Part shown: piece by piece, positions 96 through 7,410 of the stretch | Layout: each line of letters opens with the position of its first letter | Numbering within the stretch: the first letter of the stretch is position 1 | DNA from: Chlamydiota bacterium | GTDB taxonomy: Bacteria > Chlamydiota > Chlamydiia > Chlamydiales > SM23-39 | Reading direction: 5' to 3' | Assembly (NCBI GenBank): GCA_038534095.1 | Contig: JBCAXK010000059.1 | Coordinates: 1 to 7,410, forward strand | Length of the DNA: 7,410 nt | Notes under the pieces: generated by a model | What the model was told of the DNA's origin: nothing | Databases searched by the model: none | The model's input: only the letters and a program-made list of their open reading frames with translations | Translations under genes and position numbers: made by a program

Positions 96-124
96 TTGAC
101 AAATTTCTGAGAAAAAATCAAAAT
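96..124 (+). promoter_or_regulatory. Putative sigma70-type promoter of the dikinase-pepM-oxidoreductase operon
   Basis: Consensus -35 TTGACA at 96-101, 17-nt spacer, -10 CAAAAT at 119-124 (4/6 match). GAGG at 142-145 lies 6 nt before ATG 152. Confidence 0.55.
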
Positions 125-151
125 TAATTCCCTAAAATCCCGAGGCATGTG

Positions 152-2731
152 ATGCACTTTGATCATGATACAGCAAGTCAACCGCAAATCGTCGAAGTCT
201 TTCATGTGGAGGCAGAAAATAAGAGCAGTAGGAATCCCCATATGCAGGAGCAAAAACCTAATGTAAGCTACACCATTTCCGATCACGATCAGATAGGCAT
301 ATTTTTTCATGATACAAATGCAAAATTAACAAATACTTCCGTTGGTGGGAAGGCAGTTAATATGCAAAAGCTTGGCCAAATAGAAGGTCTTGCTGTTCCC
401 TCATGGTTTGTAATAGCCTCTCAAGTGTTCCAAGAATTTTTAACTGAAAACGGCCTCATGCAGATCATTCATGAACTCGATATGCTATGCCAGAATCCAC
501 AAGAAAACTCTAAATTAATACAATCGCTTGCGGATAAAATACGACTGTTAATAATAGAAAAACCATTAAAAAAAGACTTCTACCTCAAACTAAAAAATGC
601 TTACGGAAAACTGTCCCTATCTGCACTTACAACTCTTCCAAGTTTTGCAGTACGAAGTTCCGGAATCATCGAAGATAGTGCTACATCGTCTTGCGCGGGA
701 TTGTACGATACTCAGCTGCATCAAAAAGGCATCGATCATATTGCGGATGGAATAAAGTCAGTATGGGCATCTTCATTTAATCCTCGTGTTATCCAAGAGC
801 GCATCCGACTGGGATTAAAGCAAACGCAATGTGAAATGGGTGTAATCATTCAAGAACAAGTAAATGCACGTTCTTCCGGGGTTATTTCTACTCTTGTGCT
901 GAGCAACAATTATCCAGGCATCCAAATCAGCGGAAATTATGGAGTTGGGGAGAGTGTAGTAAGCGGAGAAGTATCTGTTGACGGGTGGGTACTGCACCCC
1001 CAAAAGGGGTATATTCTAGAAGAAATTAAGGGAAGCAAGGAGTCTTGTCACCAGCTCTCTTTGCAAGAAGGAGTAGAGAAAGTAGATCTACCTATCTCAA
1101 AAAGGGATGCTTTTGTGCTCAATCAAAGCGAGCTTTCAATCCTATTTGCTCAAGTTCAGACAATTAAAGATTCTTATAACTGTGATGTCGATATTGAATA
1201 TGCAGTGGATCAACGAGGAATTATTTTCATTCTGCAAGCTCGACCCCTTGTAAATGTGCAATTGGATGAAATTCGCGTTGTAGATGTGGAGGACATGAAT
1301 GAACTCAATACAATTGGTAAGGGGCATTTTTCCGTCGCAGGGGTCGCCACAGGGCGCTTAGTGTTCATAGAGTCTTTGGAAGCTCTTGAAACGGGAGAAA
1401 TCGTTCTTCAACCCCAGGATATTGCATTGGCATATATTACCACGAATGTATGGTCTCAATACCTTGGCCATATTAAGGGCTTGGTGACTCGAGAAGGATC
1501 TCCGGCTTCACATCCCATTCTACTAAGCCGTGAAAAACAAATCCCTTGTGTTATTGGAATTGCTGACGATTTTGAGCAATTGATTGCCTATTCAGGTCAA
1601 ATCGTCACAATAGATGGTTTTAACAAGTGTGTCTATGAAGGAGATGTCAAAACAAAATCAGCCAGTCAGGATGACCTGTTAAAGCAGTTCGAGCCTGTGT
1701 CTATACGACAATGGCCTGAACTTGCCGCCTCTCTTCCCCACTTATTGCATAATAAGATGGCGGTTGAATCTGAAGGTCTTTATTGGAGACGTACCCCAAC
1801 TTATCCAGTAGTGGGATTTCAAAGGGAACTGAACCTATTACGTTTTGACTTTGTTCCAATTTTACTCAAGAAACCTGATGTAAAGGTCTCATCTAATGTA
1901 ATCGATGATTATACTTGTTGCGAATTGGCTCCTTTTTCCGAATATGTCGCTTTGTTTGATGGATTCGATACAGACATGGCTTTGGCATTTAATCAAAGTC
2001 ACAAAAATTGCCTTGCAACCTTTCTAGATTGCTCCGCAAAAGCTACGAGAAGTAAGCAAGATTGGCAAGCATATATTGATGCGTATGCTCATTTGCGATC
2101 CTATATATGGCTTGGAGATGCTCTACGATCTTATGCTCAAAGAAAAGTTGAAGAGATTGGTATGGAAATACAGCTCCCTCTTTTCTACCTAGAAGAGTGC
2201 GCCAAAGAAATTCAAGCAACTCTTCCTGAACTCGATACACAAATGCACCAAGAGTTGCGTGCGCTTGCTATGCGATTTCAAAAGGAACCTATCTTTGAAG
2301 ACGTGACTATTTTAGAAAAACATGACCCGGAACTCTATCAATCTGTTGAAGAGCTTGGGAAAAAATATCGATTTGAACACAAGATCTCCTTAGATAAAGA
2401 GTTAGACCTAAATGTAGTTTACAAAAGACTGAAAAGGGAGGTTGAGGCTGTAATTCAGGGGAAATCTCTATCAACAAATAAAGCAACTGATCAAACTCGA
2501 ATCTTTCTCCCAGAAATGGATGAACTGAAAAAATGGCTATATGTGACGATTTGGAACCGTATTCTGCAGTCTGACTCTCATCATCTAGATGCTCGGGCTA
2601 AGGAAATCGTACGTCCTCAACTTTTAAAACTTGGCCAACTACTCACGGAAAAAGGCTCCATAAAGTCTGCTGAGCATATTTTCAATTATTCCATAGAGGA
2701 AATTGGAGGTTTCATAAGGGAGGTTCTATAA
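152..2731 (+). CDS. PEP/pyruvate-dikinase-family phosphotransferase (PPDK_N ATP-grasp + PEP-utilising mobile phospho-His domain + atypical C-terminal domain)
   Basis: ATP-grasp motifs VGGKAVNM, FAVRSS, ED...SCAGLYDT, GVIIQEQV, GVGESVVSG and DIEYA...ILQARP. Swivel motif GLVTREGSPASHPILLSREKQIPCV (His codon 1511-1513). The last ~360 aa lack PEP-synthase barrel motifs. The ORF track starts at GTG 149; ATG 152 is preferred from RBS spacing. Confidence 0.85.
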   Translation: MHFDHDTASQPQIVEVFHVEAENKSSRNPHMQEQKPNVSYTISDHDQIGIFFHDTNAKLTNTSVGGKAVNMQKLGQIEGLAVPSWFVIASQVFQEFLTENGLMQIIHELDMLCQNPQENSKLIQSLADKIRLLIIEKPLKKDFYLKLKNAYGKLSLSALTTLPSFAVRSSGIIEDSATSSCAGLYDTQLHQKGIDHIADGIKSVWASSFNPRVIQERIRLGLKQTQCEMGVIIQEQVNARSSGVISTLVLSNNYPGIQISGNYGVGESVVSGEVSVDGWVLHPQKGYILEEIKGSKESCHQLSLQEGVEKVDLPISKRDAFVLNQSELSILFAQVQTIKDSYNCDVDIEYAVDQRGIIFILQARPLVNVQLDEIRVVDVEDMNELNTIGKGHFSVAGVATGRLVFIESLEALETGEIVLQPQDIALAYITTNVWSQYLGHIKGLVTREGSPASHPILLSREKQIPCVIGIADDFEQLIAYSGQIVTIDGFNKCVYEGDVKTKSASQDDLLKQFEPVSIRQWPELAASLPHLLHNKMAVESEGLYWRRTPTYPVVGFQRELNLLRFDFVPILLKKPDVKVSSNVIDDYTCCELAPFSEYVALFDGFDTDMALAFNQSHKNCLATFLDCSAKATRSKQDWQAYIDAYAHLRSYIWLGDALRSYAQRKVEEIGMEIQLPLFYLEECAKEIQATLPELDTQMHQELRALAMRFQKEPIFEDVTILEKHDPELYQSVEELGKKYRFEHKISLDKELDLNVVYKRLKREVEAVIQGKSLSTNKATDQTRIFLPEMDELKKWLYVTIWNRILQSDSHHLDARAKEIVRPQLLKLGQLLTEKGSIKSAEHIFNYSIEEIGGFIREVL

Positions 2732-2733
2732 AA

Positions 2734-3624
2734 ATGAAGCGAAAAGCTCACGCGTTAAGGCAAGTTCTCTACTCGCCAAAAGTGGATTTTTCCCTTGAAG
2801 CTCACAATGGTATTTCTGCAAAAATTGTGGAGGAAGCAGGTTTTCCTGTGATTTGGGGGTCAGGGCTCACAATTTCATCTTCTCTGGGTCATCGCGATTG
2901 CAATGAGATCTCGTGGACCAATCTTTGCGATCAAGTTGAGTATATGATCGATGGGACTTCTATTCCTCTTCTTCTCGATGGCGATTCTGGATTTGGAAAT
3001 TTTAATAATGTGCGGCAGCTTGTTCGCAAGCTTTGCAAGTACAACGTAGGGGGTGTATGTTTAGAGGACAAGCTCTTCCCCAAAACGAATTCTTTTCTTC
3101 CCTATCATCAGACGCTTGCTCCAATTGATGAGTTTGTAGGCAAGATCAAAGCAGCTAAAGATACGCAGACAGATGAGGCCTTTTGTGTTGTAGCGCGTAT
3201 AGAAGCGTTCATTGCGGGTCTAGGCCTAGATGAGGCCATAGAGCGCGCTTATGCATACAAAGAAGCAGGTGCAGATGCTCTTATGATTCACTCAAAACAA
3301 AGTTCCCTGGTAGAAATTAAGCAGTTCTGTGAAGTATGGGATGGCTCTATTCCCATAGTGATCGCTCCAACAACCTATGCACCATCCAATCCAGAGGTCT
3401 ATAAGCAGCTAAATGTTTCCCTTGTCATCTGGTCGAATCAGCTTCTGCGCGTTTCAATCAAGGCGATGCGGGGCTTTGCAAAATCCCTTTTTGAAACACA
3501 AACGACTCATGCTATCCATTCTGAAATGGCTTCACTCCAAGATATTTTTAACCTTGTAGAGCAAGAGGAGCTAGAACGAGCGGAAGAGAAGTATGATCCT
3601 TGCAAACCAAGTCAAATATCGTAA
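2734..3624 (+). CDS. pepM: Phosphoenolpyruvate mutase (PEP phosphomutase)
   Basis: EDKLFPKTNS at 3064-3093 matches the PepM EDKxxxxxNS signature. Also EAHNGISA, WGSGL, RDCNE, DGDSGFG, ARIEA and IHSK; 296-aa stand-alone length. GGAGG RBS at 2719-2723 inside the upstream gene, 2-nt gap. Confidence 0.93.
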   Translation: MKRKAHALRQVLYSPKVDFSLEAHNGISAKIVEEAGFPVIWGSGLTISSSLGHRDCNEISWTNLCDQVEYMIDGTSIPLLLDGDSGFGNFNNVRQLVRKLCKYNVGGVCLEDKLFPKTNSFLPYHQTLAPIDEFVGKIKAAKDTQTDEAFCVVARIEAFIAGLGLDEAIERAYAYKEAGADALMIHSKQSSLVEIKQFCEVWDGSIPIVIAPTTYAPSNPEVYKQLNVSLVIWSNQLLRVSIKAMRGFAKSLFETQTTHAIHSEMASLQDIFNLVEQEELERAEEKYDPCKPSQIS

Positions 3625-4960
3625 CCTTGTTCTCATTGGATGCGGTCCCCACTATCGCAAAAGATACCATTCAGTACTTGAAGTTGAAAATACCAGTATT
3701 TCTCTACTTATCGACCTTCAAGACCAAGAAGAAACCATTTTAAGCTTTTTTCGGGATAAAAAGGTAAAACCTGATAAAACCTTATTCCTTGACGAGAGAT
3801 TTCGAAACTTTCTTTCTCCCGACTTGCTCGATTATTTAATACCGAAGATAGACCTAGGGCAAGTTGATGCCGTGTTACTCTGCACCGAACCAAAGGTGCG
3901 TAAATCATACGCATTGTGGGCACTGAGGCATAAATTTTCCCTTTTTATGGATAAACCTCCCTGTGCCTTTCCATCTCTCGAACAAAAGGACACTCTGTTA
4001 TACGATTATGAAGAGATTGTCCTCGCCGCAGAAAAAGCTGAAGTGAATGTAGTCGTATCATGCGAAAGAAGAGGTCATTTAGGATATTTATGGTTAATGG
4101 ACTACTTGCTCCAATTCATCCAAGAAGAGGCAGTTCCCATTACCTCTATAAATATCCATTTTGCTGGTGGCAATTGGGTGACTCCTGTAGAATATCTTCA
4201 CCAAGAACAGCATCCCTTCAAGTATGGATATGGGCTTTTACTCCACTCAGGGTATCATTACGTTGATCTACTCTCATCATTTATTTGTCTGAATCAATCA
4301 GAAGCCATAGATTACGACTTGAAAACCCTTTCTACAACCCCGCAAGATTTACTATCAGGTATTAACAGTGAAAGCATGTGCCGCTTATCCACTGCAAGTG
4401 CTTTTCAAAAGGATCTAAGTGCACTTGGTGAAGTAAGTGTTTTTCTCATTGGCCAAGCCAAAATTCGAGAGCGGTTGCTCACAAGCTTTTCACTGCAGCT
4501 TGAAAATACCTCTGTCTCTAAACGAACCTGCGATACCCCTTCTCAAGAAGCCAAGTGGAGAATGAGACAGGAATATGTCGTTATTCATTTGGGGCATCTT
4601 GCTTCAATTCATATTAGTTGCATTCCATTCAAGAAACTCGATCCAAATAGCTACCCCATTGAGGATTTCAACATTGTGATTATGCATAGTCCTCTTTTAA
4701 CGAATCGACAGCCCATTATCACGATGACAAGAGAAGATATTCCTACTTTTCCACACAATCTAAAAAATACAGGTTCTCTCAATCAATATGCCAGAGAATG
4801 GCAGTTAAGGGAATTTTTAAACGGAAGAAACGGGAACTCATTGCTAACATCGCACAGAAACACTATACAATTACTGGATATGATTTATTCTGAGATCCAC
4901 AGGCAACAAACTCCTACCCCCACTGAAAAAGCGCCACTATGCAACCCTCATTTGACATAA
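3593..4960 (+). CDS. Divergent Gfo/Idh/MocA-like NAD(P)-dependent oxidoreductase
   Basis: N-terminal Rossmann strand LVLIGCGPH; DAVLLCTEP...ALWAL...LFMDKP parallels the family V.iaTP...Al...Vl.EKP motif; GLLLHSGYHYVDL parallels G.l.d.g.H.iD. Overlaps pepM by 32 nt. Confidence 0.7.
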   Translation: MILANQVKYRNLVLIGCGPHYRKRYHSVLEVENTSISLLIDLQDQEETILSFFRDKKVKPDKTLFLDERFRNFLSPDLLDYLIPKIDLGQVDAVLLCTEPKVRKSYALWALRHKFSLFMDKPPCAFPSLEQKDTLLYDYEEIVLAAEKAEVNVVVSCERRGHLGYLWLMDYLLQFIQEEAVPITSINIHFAGGNWVTPVEYLHQEQHPFKYGYGLLLHSGYHYVDLLSSFICLNQSEAIDYDLKTLSTTPQDLLSGINSESMCRLSTASAFQKDLSALGEVSVFLIGQAKIRERLLTSFSLQLENTSVSKRTCDTPSQEAKWRMRQEYVVIHLGHLASIHISCIPFKKLDPNSYPIEDFNIVIMHSPLLTNRQPIITMTREDIPTFPHNLKNTGSLNQYAREWQLREFLNGRNGNSLLTSHRNTIQLLDMIYSEIHRQQTPTPTEKAPLCNPHLT

Positions 4961-4977: not shown

Positions 4978-6192
4978 CTAATCCTTTGTCATATCGCAAG
5001 GACGCGTAAGCGGATAACCGTCCTTTGAATGCTCCACATAATTTGCAATCCATCCGGTAATACGCCCCAAAGCCAACATACATGTGTTCATTTCTCGTGG
5101 CGCTCCGAAGAGTCTATAAAAGATGCAATTGAAAAGATCAGGATTCGGGGTTAGATTTCGTTTTTTGAAAAATTCATCATTGGACACACGTTCTATAAGC
5201 TTAATAGCAGCGTCTCTATACCTAGCTATCTCAGGGAAATCGAACGACTTATCAGTCAGTATTTGGTGCATTTTTTCTACCCTTGGATCCCAACAGTTTA
5301 GAATGCGGTTATATGTTCTTTGCCCAAATCCCATTAAAAGCGTCTTGCTTTCAATCTTTTTGTCGACGTAGGTATCCACATCCAAACCGCTTTCTAATAA
5401 CTCTTCATACATAGCCGAGACAAATTGACTAGCTCCTCCATGGATCATTCCATTGAAAGCTGCCATTCCTGAAGCTACAGCCGTATATATGCTACTGCGA
5501 GCGCTTGCTACGCTTCTGACTGTTGCTGCAGAGCAGTTTTGACCATGTTCAGCATGCAGAATCATAATCGTGTTTAGAATCTTACCTAATTTTTGTATGC
5601 GGTCCTGATTCTTGCCTGCATGCATCTGGTATAGAATTTTTTCAGAATATGAACAGTCATCTTGTGGTTCTACCCACTCATAAGATTGAGTTTTTGTGTA
5701 TCGATAAGAAACTGTAATTGCGACTTGGGCAATTAAAAACCCAGCTTTTTCCACAATGTCTTGGGGATCTTTTAAATACGCATTTTCAATGCCTCCCAGT
5801 CCAGTCACCACCATGCCCAACACATCCATAGGGTGAGTTTCCAAAGGAATGACGTCCATCAAGTCCTTTTGCTCTTTCAGGAGATGAAAATGATCGCGCA
5901 CGGCTTTTTTAAAATCTGCTTTTCTCCGGTCCTCTTCCCCAAAAATGATGAAATATGCAACATCCAAAAAATCAGATTCTAATAATGTTTCAACAGACTT
6001 TCCACGATAGTAGAGCTTGCCATCACTTTTATCTATTTTACATAAGGCGCTCTTACAAATGGCTGTGTGATACAGGCCGGGATCATAGATCATTAATTTA
6101 TTGACGGCCTCTTTCAAATGAAGAACAGTATATTCCCCTTCAGCACTTACAGAAAATAAATCATCTAAATCAACATCTTTGATTGCAGTCAT
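4978..6192 (-). CDS. Citrate synthase family protein (type II/GltA-like) with a non-canonical active site
   Basis: YDPGLYHTAICKS...IDKSDGKLYYRG, HPMDVL, ILHAEHGQNCS, HGGA, LMGFGQRTY...DPR, PNPDLF, GRITGWIA and C-terminal LTRP. AAGGA RBS upstream of ATG 6192. Confidence 0.88.
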   Translation of the reverse strand: MTAIKDVDLDDLFSVSAEGEYTVLHLKEAVNKLMIYDPGLYHTAICKSALCKIDKSDGKLYYRGKSVETLLESDFLDVAYFIIFGEEDRRKADFKKAVRDHFHLLKEQKDLMDVIPLETHPMDVLGMVVTGLGGIENAYLKDPQDIVEKAGFLIAQVAITVSYRYTKTQSYEWVEPQDDCSYSEKILYQMHAGKNQDRIQKLGKILNTIMILHAEHGQNCSAATVRSVASARSSIYTAVASGMAAFNGMIHGGASQFVSAMYEELLESGLDVDTYVDKKIESKTLLMGFGQRTYNRILNCWDPRVEKMHQILTDKSFDFPEIARYRDAAIKLIERVSNDEFFKKRNLTPNPDLFNCIFYRLFGAPREMNTCMLALGRITGWIANYVEHSKDGYPLTRPCDMTKD

Positions 6193-6210: not shown

Positions 6211-7077
6211 TTAATGCGTTACTAAGGTTTCATGTTTCTCAGAGAAATAATTCTCAAGATAACGATGAAATAGCGAGCGCATCTTGGCTGTGTGGGCACC
6301 AGGAAGTCCTGTGCCTACTTTTTTATCGTCTATCTGTACAAGGGGAACGGCATCTTTTACACTCGAACAGAGAAAGGCCTCATCACAAGCTTCGATCTCG
6401 TCTAGATGTAAAGCCCGAAACTCGACGGGGTAGTGCTCTTTAGCTAGCCTAAGCAATATAGTTCTTGTAACACCGTTTACTACTTGATCATCTTTAGCAG
6501 TAATCCATTTTCCGTCTTTAAGAAAAAAAAGATTACTCGTTGTAGCTTCTAAAAGTTCCTGAGAGGAATTAAGGTAAATTGCATCATCCGCTCGAGCCTT
6601 TTCCGCTTTTTTCATCGCTAAAACAGCATGCGTATAGTTTGTAGCTTTTACACAAGGGTAAGTACGGTCCGAATGGAAGGTAACTACGCGCATTCCTTCC
6701 TTATAATACCTCTCCGGATGGGGCTGAAATGGGTGAAATAGCATAACTAATTCTGAATGATTTGCGGGCAAAAGGAACTCTTTCCCACACAACCCACCTG
6801 TAATAAGGAAACGAATTCCCGCATCTATGGGTGGATTTTTATCGATGAGCTGAAGTGTTAACGCTTTGATCTCTCCTATATCCATAGGGAGAGCCAAGTC
6901 AATTTGCTGGGCAGACCATTTTAATCGATCGAGATGATCGTCCAGATGGAATGGTTTCCCTTGATATAATTGGACATAGTCGAACACTCCATATCCTCGG
7001 AGCAATCCAAGGTCAAAAGGACTGAAGACAGCCTCTTGTTCGTTTGCGAAAGCATTATTCAGAAAATGAAAGATCAT
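6211..7077 (-). CDS. Aminotransferase class IV (PLP fold type IV; D-amino-acid transaminase-like)
   Basis: DLGLLRGYGVFDY, HLDRL, GIRFLITGG, catalytic Lys in VKATNY, EATTSNLF, NGVTR and DEAFLCSS. 18-nt gap to the downstream gene. Confidence 0.9.
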   Translation of the reverse strand: MIFHFLNNAFANEQEAVFSPFDLGLLRGYGVFDYVQLYQGKPFHLDDHLDRLKWSAQQIDLALPMDIGEIKALTLQLIDKNPPIDAGIRFLITGGLCGKEFLLPANHSELVMLFHPFQPHPERYYKEGMRVVTFHSDRTYPCVKATNYTHAVLAMKKAEKARADDAIYLNSSQELLEATTSNLFFLKDGKWITAKDDQVVNGVTRTILLRLAKEHYPVEFRALHLDEIEACDEAFLCSSVKDAVPLVQIDDKKVGTGLPGAHTAKMRSLFHRYLENYFSEKHETLVTH

Positions 7078-7126: not shown

Positions 7127-7189
7127 GAAATTTAAAATCACAATGTTGTATCCTGTTCAGAAACAGAGAAAAATGAGATATAAGAAGTC

Positions 7190-7410
7190 ATGCGCTTTAG
7201 CTTGGTGGTGTCTATTTTACTATCACTCCATTTGCATGCTTTTGCTTTGTCCCTATCTTCTTCAATCCAAAAGAGCCTTCCGCTTGAAGAGTACGTGGAA
7301 CTGCATCCGTTTCTGCATCTCTCATTTGAACAAGCTAACCAAGCGATTGGCTGTCAACCTTTATTCATTGATGTCTCTCAGCAATTGGTCAATGAAATTT
7401 TTTCCATTTT
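7190..7410 (+). CDS. 5' part of a hypothetical exported protein (runs off the right edge)
   Basis: Open frame from ATG 7190: MRFSLVVSILLSLHLHAFA|LSLSSSIQKSLPLEEYVELHPF... It has a basic N-terminus, hydrophobic core and AFA cleavage motif typical of a Sec/SPase I signal peptide, and no stop before the window end. Confidence 0.6.
   Translation, partial: MRFSLVVSILLSLHLHAFALSLSSSIQKSLPLEEYVELHPFLHLSFEQANQAIGCQPLFIDVSQQLVNEIFSI

Follow-up and report, generated by a model that had tools for sequence, protein, structure and literature searches.

A predicted decarboxylase-independent phosphonate gene cluster of environmental Chlamydiota that encodes a citrate-synthase-fold enzyme with an altered active site

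Gene organization of the cluster

The window analysed here is a DNA stretch of 7,410 nucleotides that comprises an entire contig (JBCAXK010000059.1; the 7.4-kb contig C59) of a Chlamydiota bacterium (assembly GCA_038534095.1). The source genome is 1.6 Mb and 96.6% complete, and its relatives carry the labels Parachlamydiales or Chlamydiae MAGs (metagenome-assembled genomes). The window contains a gene cluster with a phosphoenolpyruvate (PEP) mutase gene (pepM), in which a remodelled citrate-synthase-type enzyme is probably used in place of a decarboxylase, as judged from the sequences described below. Three co-oriented genes encode a kinase-like protein (DIK, ORF1; ORF, open reading frame), PepM (ORF2), and an oxidoreductase (GFO, ORF3), and the genes for a citrate-synthase-fold protein (CS-Q) and an aminotransferase (AT4) are convergent to this trio (Table 1).

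The ORF coordinates bear out the compact arrangement of the trio given in the original prediction: ORF1 and ORF2 are separated by 2 nt (2732-2733), and the last 32 nt of ORF2 (3593-3624) are shared with the start of ORF3, an overlap that is also present in a related chlamydial locus, L010. The trio had further been placed behind one promoter. A site that could serve as such was found upstream of ORF1, but the window holds no excess of promoter-like sites (12 seen versus 16.2 expected), and the site can thus be regarded only as a candidate and a single promoter as plausible. No RNA family was detected in the window by the Rfam search.

The cluster reaches past the three-gene operon originally described, taking in the convergent pair and an exporter. 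The product of the partial gene at positions 7187-7410 matches residues 1-68 of a 332-aa protein encoded after AT4 in L010, and contig C70 (3743 b) of the window's genome encodes residues 113-332 of this protein, followed by two ABC-2 permeases and then an ATPase, in the same order as in L010.

Table 1. Features of the 7,410-nucleotide window
Feature	Position	Strand	Length	Remarks
Sigma-70-like promoter candidate, TTGACA-17-CAAAAT	96..124	+		10/12 matches; upstream of ORF1
DIK, predicted RPH-like ATP-dependent phosphotransferase	149..2731	+	860 aa	GTG at 149, ATG at 152
PepM, PEP mutase by family	2734..3624	+	296 aa	TIGR02320 above cut-off; EDKLFPKTNS
GFO, divergent Gfo/Idh/MocA-fold NAD(P) oxidoreductase	3593..4960	+	455 aa	Homologues, profile, and structure matches
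CS-Q, citrate-synthase-fold acyl-CoA condensing enzyme (predicted), Gln variant	4978..6192	-	404 aa	PF00285
AT4, class IV (fold-type IV) aminotransferase, dedicated paralogue	6211..7077	-	288 aa	PF01063
5' part of a gene for a signal-peptide-like protein	7187..7410	+		Cut by the contig end; continues on C70

PEP mutase and the search for known pulling enzymes

ORF2 scored 337.4 bits against the PEP mutase model TIGR02320, above the equivalog cut-off of 319.55, and fell below the cut-offs of the sibling families, namely prpB (137 versus 354), phosphonopyruvate hydrolase (195 versus 374), and CPEP mutase. The motif EDKX5NS discriminates PepM, and the sequence EDKLFPKTNS at residues 111-120 (window 3064-3093) fits it. 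The middle gene is, by its family assignment, a PEP mutase, and the PepM signature originally noted in it was recovered by both the score and the motif.

According to the original prediction, no homologue of Ppd (phosphonopyruvate decarboxylase) or of a DRE-TIM synthase is encoded in the window. This was confirmed for the whole genome: TIGR03297 (Ppd) gave no candidate in either the window or the genome, and PF00682 (DRE-TIM, HMGL-like) matched neither the window proteins nor the genome. The TPP_enzyme_C matches in the genome consist of AlsS and weak ones in other thiamine pyrophosphate (TPP) enzymes. AlsS, a catabolic acetolactate synthase (734 bits versus a cut-off of 510), is the only strong TPP enzyme in the genome; its gene lies at G000:C25:13562-15319 (L210:232-1989), in a genome without aconitase. 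A VlpB-type dehydrogenase was sought with PF02826 (2-Hacid_dh), and the one weak match above the cut-off (31 bits, contig C10) lies away from the cluster and was discarded. Aconitase (PF00330) was absent from the genome, no aconitase-type isomerase was found in the cluster, and no PrpD appeared in the profile search.

The further claim that the window encodes no pulling enzyme at all finds no support in this form, because the convergent genes are predicted to encode an acyl-CoA-condensing citrate-synthase-fold protein together with an aminotransferase, which are functional analogues of two known pulling steps.

A citrate-synthase-fold enzyme with an altered active site

CS-Q matched the citrate synthase (CS) family PF00285 with 256.8 bits over positions 1-356 of the 357-position profile and the structure 7e8n with an E-value of 1.6e-54, and it scored below the cut-offs of all 20 citrate synthase equivalogs (best, 243.2 versus 505 for NF004126). 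In citrate synthase (pig numbering), His274 and Asp375 enolise acetyl-CoA, and His320 polarises the carbonyl of oxaloacetate. Alignment of CS-Q with 40 CS sequences and with CS proteins of solved structure indicated that the motifs HGGAS (residues 251-255) and NPDLF (350-354) are retained but that the second His, that of the canonical GFGHR motif, is replaced by Gln291, leaving the catalytic triad incomplete. We equate the HGGAS His with H274, the PNPD Asp with D375, and the position changed to Gln with H320. The altered active-site stretch reads GFGQRTYNRILNCWDPR and spans residues 288-304 (window 5281-5331).

This signature tracks the presence of pepM. All nine CS sequences aligned from PepM clusters (two of which, L003 and L011, represent one locus) read GFGQRTYNRIxxxxDPR, with four residues inserted before DPR, and the same reading was found in L013 and in 8/8 close metagenome relatives. 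CS proteins that are linked to GFO in loci without PepM, from Photorhabdus, Cupriavidus, and Chitinophaga, retain GFGHR(I/V)YK-xDPR without the insertion (12/12), as do housekeeping citrate synthases for GFGHR (19/19, again without the insertion). Of 16 distinct Gln-type loci, 10 also encode PepM; the contigs of the remaining six (1.4-8.9 kb) end before it could be reached, but AT4, GFO, or DIK is present on them. In a CS tree of 61 rows, which was built by a quick search and returned a long-branch warning, 25 GFO-linked CS proteins formed one group (SH-aLRT 100), within which the 13 Gln-type rows were nested as one group (SH-aLRT 98).

CS-Q is encoded by the single PF00285 gene of the genome and, given that aconitase is lacking, appears to have no citric acid cycle to serve. 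It shares 23-28% identity with the housekeeping CS of related chlamydiae and 32-38% identity with the GFO-linked CS of the other phyla, and one genome (G034) encodes a housekeeping CS in addition to the cluster CS. A housekeeping role for CS-Q was therefore rejected on three grounds: the absence of aconitase, the low identity, and the co-occurrence of both types in G034. Phosphonopyruvate is the phosphonate isostere of oxaloacetate. Together with the tracking of PepM by the signature, this isostery makes a switch of the keto-acid substrate the simplest reading of the change in CS-Q.

The GFO-linked clusters of Photorhabdus, Cupriavidus, and Chitinophaga (L017-L027 and L029; e.g. L023:6141-13130, L018:4633-16045, and L027:4561-11523) contain a His-type CS gene directly followed by a GFO-like gene, and in addition a gene for a major facilitator superfamily (MFS) exporter, but no pepM. 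Either or both of a PRK08162-like acyl-CoA synthetase and a 490-aa nucleotidyltransferase-like protein are encoded as well, and an acetolactate-synthase-like TPP enzyme is frequent. The product of these clusters is probably a carboxylate counterpart of that of the chlamydial cluster.

Conservation of the gene set and the exporter

The five window proteins were searched by tblastn against 88 loci. All five genes occur together in five chlamydial MAG loci (L010, L011, L012, L016, and L028), and partial sets were found in L009, L013, L015, and L039, where the contigs end. CS is retained with the trio in chlamydial loci wherever the contig extends far enough, and AT4 is retained in most. The neighbourhood of the trio, with CS and AT4 included, is conserved across about nine chlamydial genomes. 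Among 400 genomes sampled from the phylum, 11 encode a PepM scoring above the cut-off; seven of these carry a gene set of the five-gene type, and the remaining four hold different pepM clusters.

Genes for an ABC-2 transporter, composed of an ATPase and two ABC2_membrane_6 permeases, flank the core in L010-L013, L016, and L028, and those of the window's own genome are located on C70. The ATPase of L012 contains a DrrA1-3_C domain. A distant version of the cluster, L136, encodes CS-Q (42% CS identity), GFO, PepM, and an ABC-2 transporter; AT4 and DIK are replaced by an ELFV-type amino acid dehydrogenase and an acyl-CoA synthetase. The content of L136 suggests that the conserved functions are PepM, CS-Q, GFO, amination of a 2-oxo acid, and export.

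In several versions of the cluster, the core genes are interspersed with or flanked by those for a GT92/GT2-like glycosyltransferase and a DprE1/ALO-like flavin adenine dinucleotide (FAD) oxidase (L012:10273-12596, L016:10264-12652, L028:12109-14315, and L138:372-989), and the product in these organisms may carry a sugar or be joined to one. These genes are absent from the window's own cluster, and the sole weak GT92-like match in its genome is on contig C47. In a related MAG, a gene located ~1.3 kb upstream of the cluster (L010:2970-4274) encodes an Otubain-like (Peptidase_C65) protein, a eukaryote-type deubiquitinase domain of a kind known from intracellular bacteria.

A second type of chlamydial pepM cluster was found in L123, L126, L128, and L125 (genomes G042, G144, G023, and G383). 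L123, L126, and L128 encode PepM, a Ldh_2-type dehydrogenase, and a SAM_HAT_N protein. A PhyH dioxygenase is present in L123 and L126 and an ABC-2 transporter in L123 (six ORFs were scanned in L126), and L128 additionally encodes a B12-radical SAM (S-adenosylmethionine) enzyme and a split RPH-like kinase homologue. L125 encodes a cytidylyltransferase-PepM fusion, a radical SAM enzyme, PhyH, and an ABC-2 transporter.

GFO, AT4, and DIK

ORF3 itself matched no Pfam or NCBIfam model at E<=0.01, including PF01408. Its assignment as a Gfo/Idh/MocA protein, which agrees with the original prediction, is supported by homologues, profile, and structural models: PF01408 is present in many of 70 ORF3 homologues, the ORF3 family profile matches the Gfo/Idh/MocA structures 3e18 (E 7.5e-6) and 1xea, and the Atlas neighbours of ORF3, structure matches included, are GFO_IDH_MocA proteins. 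An AlphaFold2 (AF2) model of ORF3 (pLDDT, predicted local distance difference test, 91.1) matched GFOR, DgpA, and AFR at E-values of 1e-16 to 1e-14; in the Foldseek comparison with GFOR (1ofg; E 1.6e-16), a two-domain fold was recovered, with TM (template modelling) scores of 0.54-0.61 by query. The family is characterized by the motifs GxGxxG, E/D-K-P, and ...GxHxxD. GFO conforms to these with GCGPHY (16-21), DKP (120-122), and HSGYHYVD (218-225), but His218 takes the place of the first Asp in the usual DxGxH. A further motif is SCERR (156-160), the Cys of which is nearly invariant across the family; invariant columns include D120, K121, P122, R159, R160, G220, H222, D225, and R311. The invariant Arg residues and the SCERR Cys fit anionic substrates. 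The structures that GFO matches best belong to generic sugar-oxidising Gfo/Idh/MocA enzymes with 11-15% identity; they are uninformative as to the substrate, and an assignment on this basis was dropped.

Orthologous GFO genes (35-41% identity) lie directly after a His-type CS gene in 12 loci of Photorhabdus, Cupriavidus, and Chitinophaga, and no pepM occurs within 9 kb in these loci. This pairing ties GFO to CS chemistry and not to phosphonopyruvate as such. Distant members of the GFO family (27-32% identity) were found in L030-L088 and L005-L007, at ~9001-10400 in most of these loci; their hosts are candidate phyla radiation (CPR) bacteria, Chloroflexota, Bacillota, Actinomycetota, and other chlamydiae. 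Their neighbours encode NUDIX hydrolases, AAA_17 kinases, Ldh_1(-NT5C) fusions, HAD and histidine phosphatases, radical SAM enzymes, and AMP-binding enzymes, and NUDIX-GFO fusions are listed in the Atlas, which suggests that the distant members act on phosphorylated or nucleotide-like substrates. Substrate assignment from these neighbours was abandoned for the CS-linked clade, to which it does not transfer.

AT4 matched PF01063 over the full profile (164.8 bits) and scored below the subfamily cut-offs of BCAT (163 versus 363), DAAT (142 versus 320 and 137 versus 277), and ADCL (128 versus 308). A second class IV gene, whose product is 33% identical to AT4, is located on contig C29. Assignment of D- or L-specificity to AT4 from sequence motifs was ambiguous and was dropped.

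DIK consists, in this order, of an ATP-grasp domain (PPDK_N, 64-369), a phosphohistidine swivel domain (421-492), and a helical substrate domain (~500-860). The His of the swivel domain lies within GSPASHP (residues 450-456), and residues 57-532 align to PEP synthase structures. DIK is far below the equivalog cut-offs of PEP synthase (TIGR01418, 213 versus 739.75) and rifampin phosphotransferase (RPH; NF041857, 157.4 versus 999). The PEP-utilizers_C TIM barrel (PF02896) was not matched in DIK, and its last 360 residues matched no family; this C-terminal domain is confined to 18 protein clusters among 5.77 billion, which share one architecture. The AF2 model of the domain (pLDDT 91.7) is helical and superposes on the rifampin-binding domain of RPH-Lm (residues 315-718) with a Z score of 13.2 over 304 residues (root-mean-square deviation, 5.5), the next unrelated structure having a Z score of 6.6. 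On the basis of this model, DIK is predicted to be a small-molecule phosphotransferase of the RPH/PEP-synthase kind with another domain order. The 'dikinase-like kinase' of the original prediction combines PEP-synthase-like ATP-grasp and swivel domains with a substrate domain that is RPH-like and not a TIM barrel. For this reason, we rejected the possibility that DIK is a PEP synthase that feeds PepM. The occurrence of the split DIK homologue in L128, a different chlamydial pepM cluster, ties the role of DIK to phosphonates.

Proposed pathway and alternative explanations

We propose that the window represents the central part of a phosphonate cluster, conserved in environmental Chlamydiota and independent of a decarboxylase, in which PepM, CS-Q, GFO, and AT4 act in this order, with DIK and the exporter serving in tailoring, protection, and export; we give this scheme an even chance of being correct. 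PepM would turn PEP into phosphonopyruvate, an activity expected from its family. CS-Q would then condense phosphonopyruvate with acetyl-CoA or another acyl-CoA to yield a 2-phosphonomethylmalate-type acid, and because thioester hydrolysis makes this step irreversible, it would provide the thermodynamic pull for PepM. GFO and AT4 may convert an intermediate to an amino-phosphonate, with GFO generating or processing an oxo group and AT4 aminating a 2-oxo acid; the amino acid dehydrogenase of L136 indicates that amination in this cluster most likely acts on a 2-oxo acid. DIK would spend ATP, releasing AMP and Pi via a phosphohistidine, to phosphorylate an intermediate or the product for activation or self-protection, and the DrrAB-like ABC-2 transporter would export the compound. 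The later steps are assigned with lower confidence than the scheme as a whole.

A more specific proposal, which we hold tentatively and with less assurance than the scheme itself, is that the CS fold was recruited as a phosphonopyruvate-condensing 'phosphono-citrate synthase' by the single His-to-Gln change and the loop insertion, as an independent, convergent answer to the PepM equilibrium. The cluster might then specify a new phosphonate class from obligate intracellular chlamydiae, with DIK phosphorylating the product or an intermediate, and the ancestral module of acyl-CoA synthetase, CS, and Gfo-type enzyme in Photorhabdus, Cupriavidus, and Chitinophaga might make the carboxylate counterpart.

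Several points weigh against the proposed scheme. The substrate assignment of CS-Q derives from co-occurrence and one active-site signature, and the His-to-Gln change could simply weaken the enzyme; the long-branch warning attached to the quick CS tree is to be counted here as well. Since 2-phosphonomethylmalate carries only a tertiary alcohol and lacks a keto group, it is no direct substrate for either a dehydrogenase or an aminotransferase; with aconitase lacking as well, this compound does not lead in a simple way to the GFO and AT4 steps. The non-chlamydial versions contain a dedicated acyl-CoA synthetase, and one PRK08162-like subfamily accompanies CS and GFO in L015, L018, L023, and L136, a hint that the nucleophile is not acetyl-CoA; no close homologue of this synthetase was found in the window's genome, where matches have 24-26% identity only. 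The alcohol on which GFO acts in the ancestral module may stem from the side chain of a special acyl-CoA.

AT4 alone could also trap phosphonopyruvate as phosphonoalanine. It would then be the pulling enzyme, converting phosphonopyruvate to (D- or L-) phosphonoalanine in the manner of PnaA/PalB, and CS-Q, GFO, and DIK would serve to assemble a second moiety or to modify the product. In the part of PMC8942020 consulted, transamination of phosphonopyruvate is accepted as a pulling step. AT4 is a dedicated paralogue that is conserved together with the cluster, and the enzyme by which it is replaced in L136 is of a type acting on 2-oxo acids such as phosphonopyruvate. We nevertheless consider this account unlikely: no AT4 gene was found in L013 (G018), where only an AvtA-like class I enzyme is encoded 6.5 kb away, and neither the exact tracking of PepM by the His-to-Gln change and insertion in CS nor the retention of CS in an organism without aconitase would be explained.

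It also seems quite improbable that GFO is the pulling enzyme, reducing phosphonopyruvate to phosphonolactate in a VlpB-like role with a different fold before phosphorylation by DIK, as the original prediction had suggested by way of example. The valinophos pathway includes phosphorylation of a carboxylate or hydroxyl group after phosphonolactate, the GFO gene overlaps pepM by 32 nt and always accompanies it in this cluster type, and the invariant residues R159, R160, and R311 suit an anionic substrate. The example is nonetheless made less likely by the pairing of GFO orthologues with a His-type CS in the 12 loci without PepM within 9 kb; other chlamydial PepM clusters, moreover, use a Ldh_2 enzyme for the presumed reduction, and consumption of the keto group by GFO would leave CS-Q without an electrophile. 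A route that involves no phosphonate, in which 'PepM' is a lyase of the isocitrate-lyase/PEP-mutase superfamily operating with CS in a methylcitrate-cycle-like pathway (cf. prpB-prpC-prpE), is very improbable. The combination of acyl-CoA synthetase, CS, and PEP-mutase-superfamily genes in the non-chlamydial versions does resemble the content of a prp operon, but ORF2 exceeds the TIGR02320 cut-off, is far below that of prpB, and contains EDKX5NS, and neither PrpD nor aconitase is present.

Comparison with known phosphonate systems

Phosphonates include antibiotics and herbicides, and in genome mining pepM clusters are classed by how the unfavourable PepM reaction is drawn forward, that is, by their pulling enzyme. 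Current mining rules, as given in the part of PMC8942020 consulted, seek Ppd, HMGL-like, 2-Hacid_dh, and Aminotran_1_2. A pulling enzyme with the CS fold would be missed by such rules, and the present scheme, if true, would reveal a hidden branch. The His-to-Gln signature offers a simple sequence marker for further clusters of this kind, and the site allows a clean mutational test of a carboxylate-to-phosphonate substrate switch in an enzyme of central metabolism. The chemistry would be among the first concrete secondary-metabolite chemistry proposed for Chlamydiota, to which DIK adds a domain-shuffled relative of an antibiotic-inactivating kinase.

A 'phosphonate BGC' (biosynthetic gene cluster) was previously noted in two Ca. 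Sororchlamydiaceae MAGs, with a fosfomycin-like product suggested (Dharamshi et al. 2022, PMC9666466). In the portion of that paper available to us, one of these MAGs, S1_42, corresponds to our locus L028 and thus to the same cluster family, and only PepM was identified, the accompanying enzymes not being analysed. Our literature search found no paper tying PF00285 or a dikinase-like enzyme to PepM, although larger supplementary tables may list such neighbourhoods; one supplement of PMC8942020, a source consulted in part, contained no PF00285, PF01326, PF01408, or Chlamydi entries. The original view of an undescribed phosphonate branch therefore stands in the sense that this is a Ppd-independent cluster whose composition was not found described in the literature. 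What is new here is a phosphonate cluster whose early branch-point enzyme probably comes from a new family.

FrbC, PsfB (Psf2), and HvrC are the 2-phosphonomethylmalate synthases of the FR-900098, Pseudomonas fosfomycin, and pantaphos pathways, respectively. The reaction proposed for CS-Q (acetyl-CoA + phosphonopyruvate -> 2-phosphonomethylmalate) is the same as theirs and would likewise pull PepM irreversibly without Ppd. In the consulted parts of PMC12871164 and PMC8942020, the described 2-phosphonomethylmalate synthases are all homocitrate-synthase-like. Unlike these DRE-TIM enzymes (PF00682), CS-Q has the unrelated Si-citrate-synthase fold (PF00285), and the enzymes that follow in the known pathways, namely the aconitase- and isocitrate dehydrogenase-like FrbA/B, the diiron enzyme PsfC, and a HvrD/E-type dehydratase, are absent here. 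With type II citrate synthase (GltA; 7e8n and 4tvm), CS-Q shares the fold, the length, the HGGAS His, the PNxD Asp, and the arginines of DPR, LGR, and xRP, but it differs in the Gln that replaces the GFGHR His and in the 4-residue insertion before DPR.

DIK shares the ATP-grasp and phosphohistidine swivel domains with both RPH-Lm (5hv1 and 5fbt) and PEP synthase, and its helical region resembles the rifampin domain of the former. By analogy, the chemistry common to the three would be the conversion of ATP to AMP and Pi with transfer of the beta-phosphate via His. In domain order, DIK agrees with PEP synthase (ATP-grasp, swivel, and substrate domain), whereas in RPH the substrate domain lies between the ATP-grasp and swivel domains; unlike PEP synthase, DIK is devoid of the PEP/pyruvate TIM barrel.

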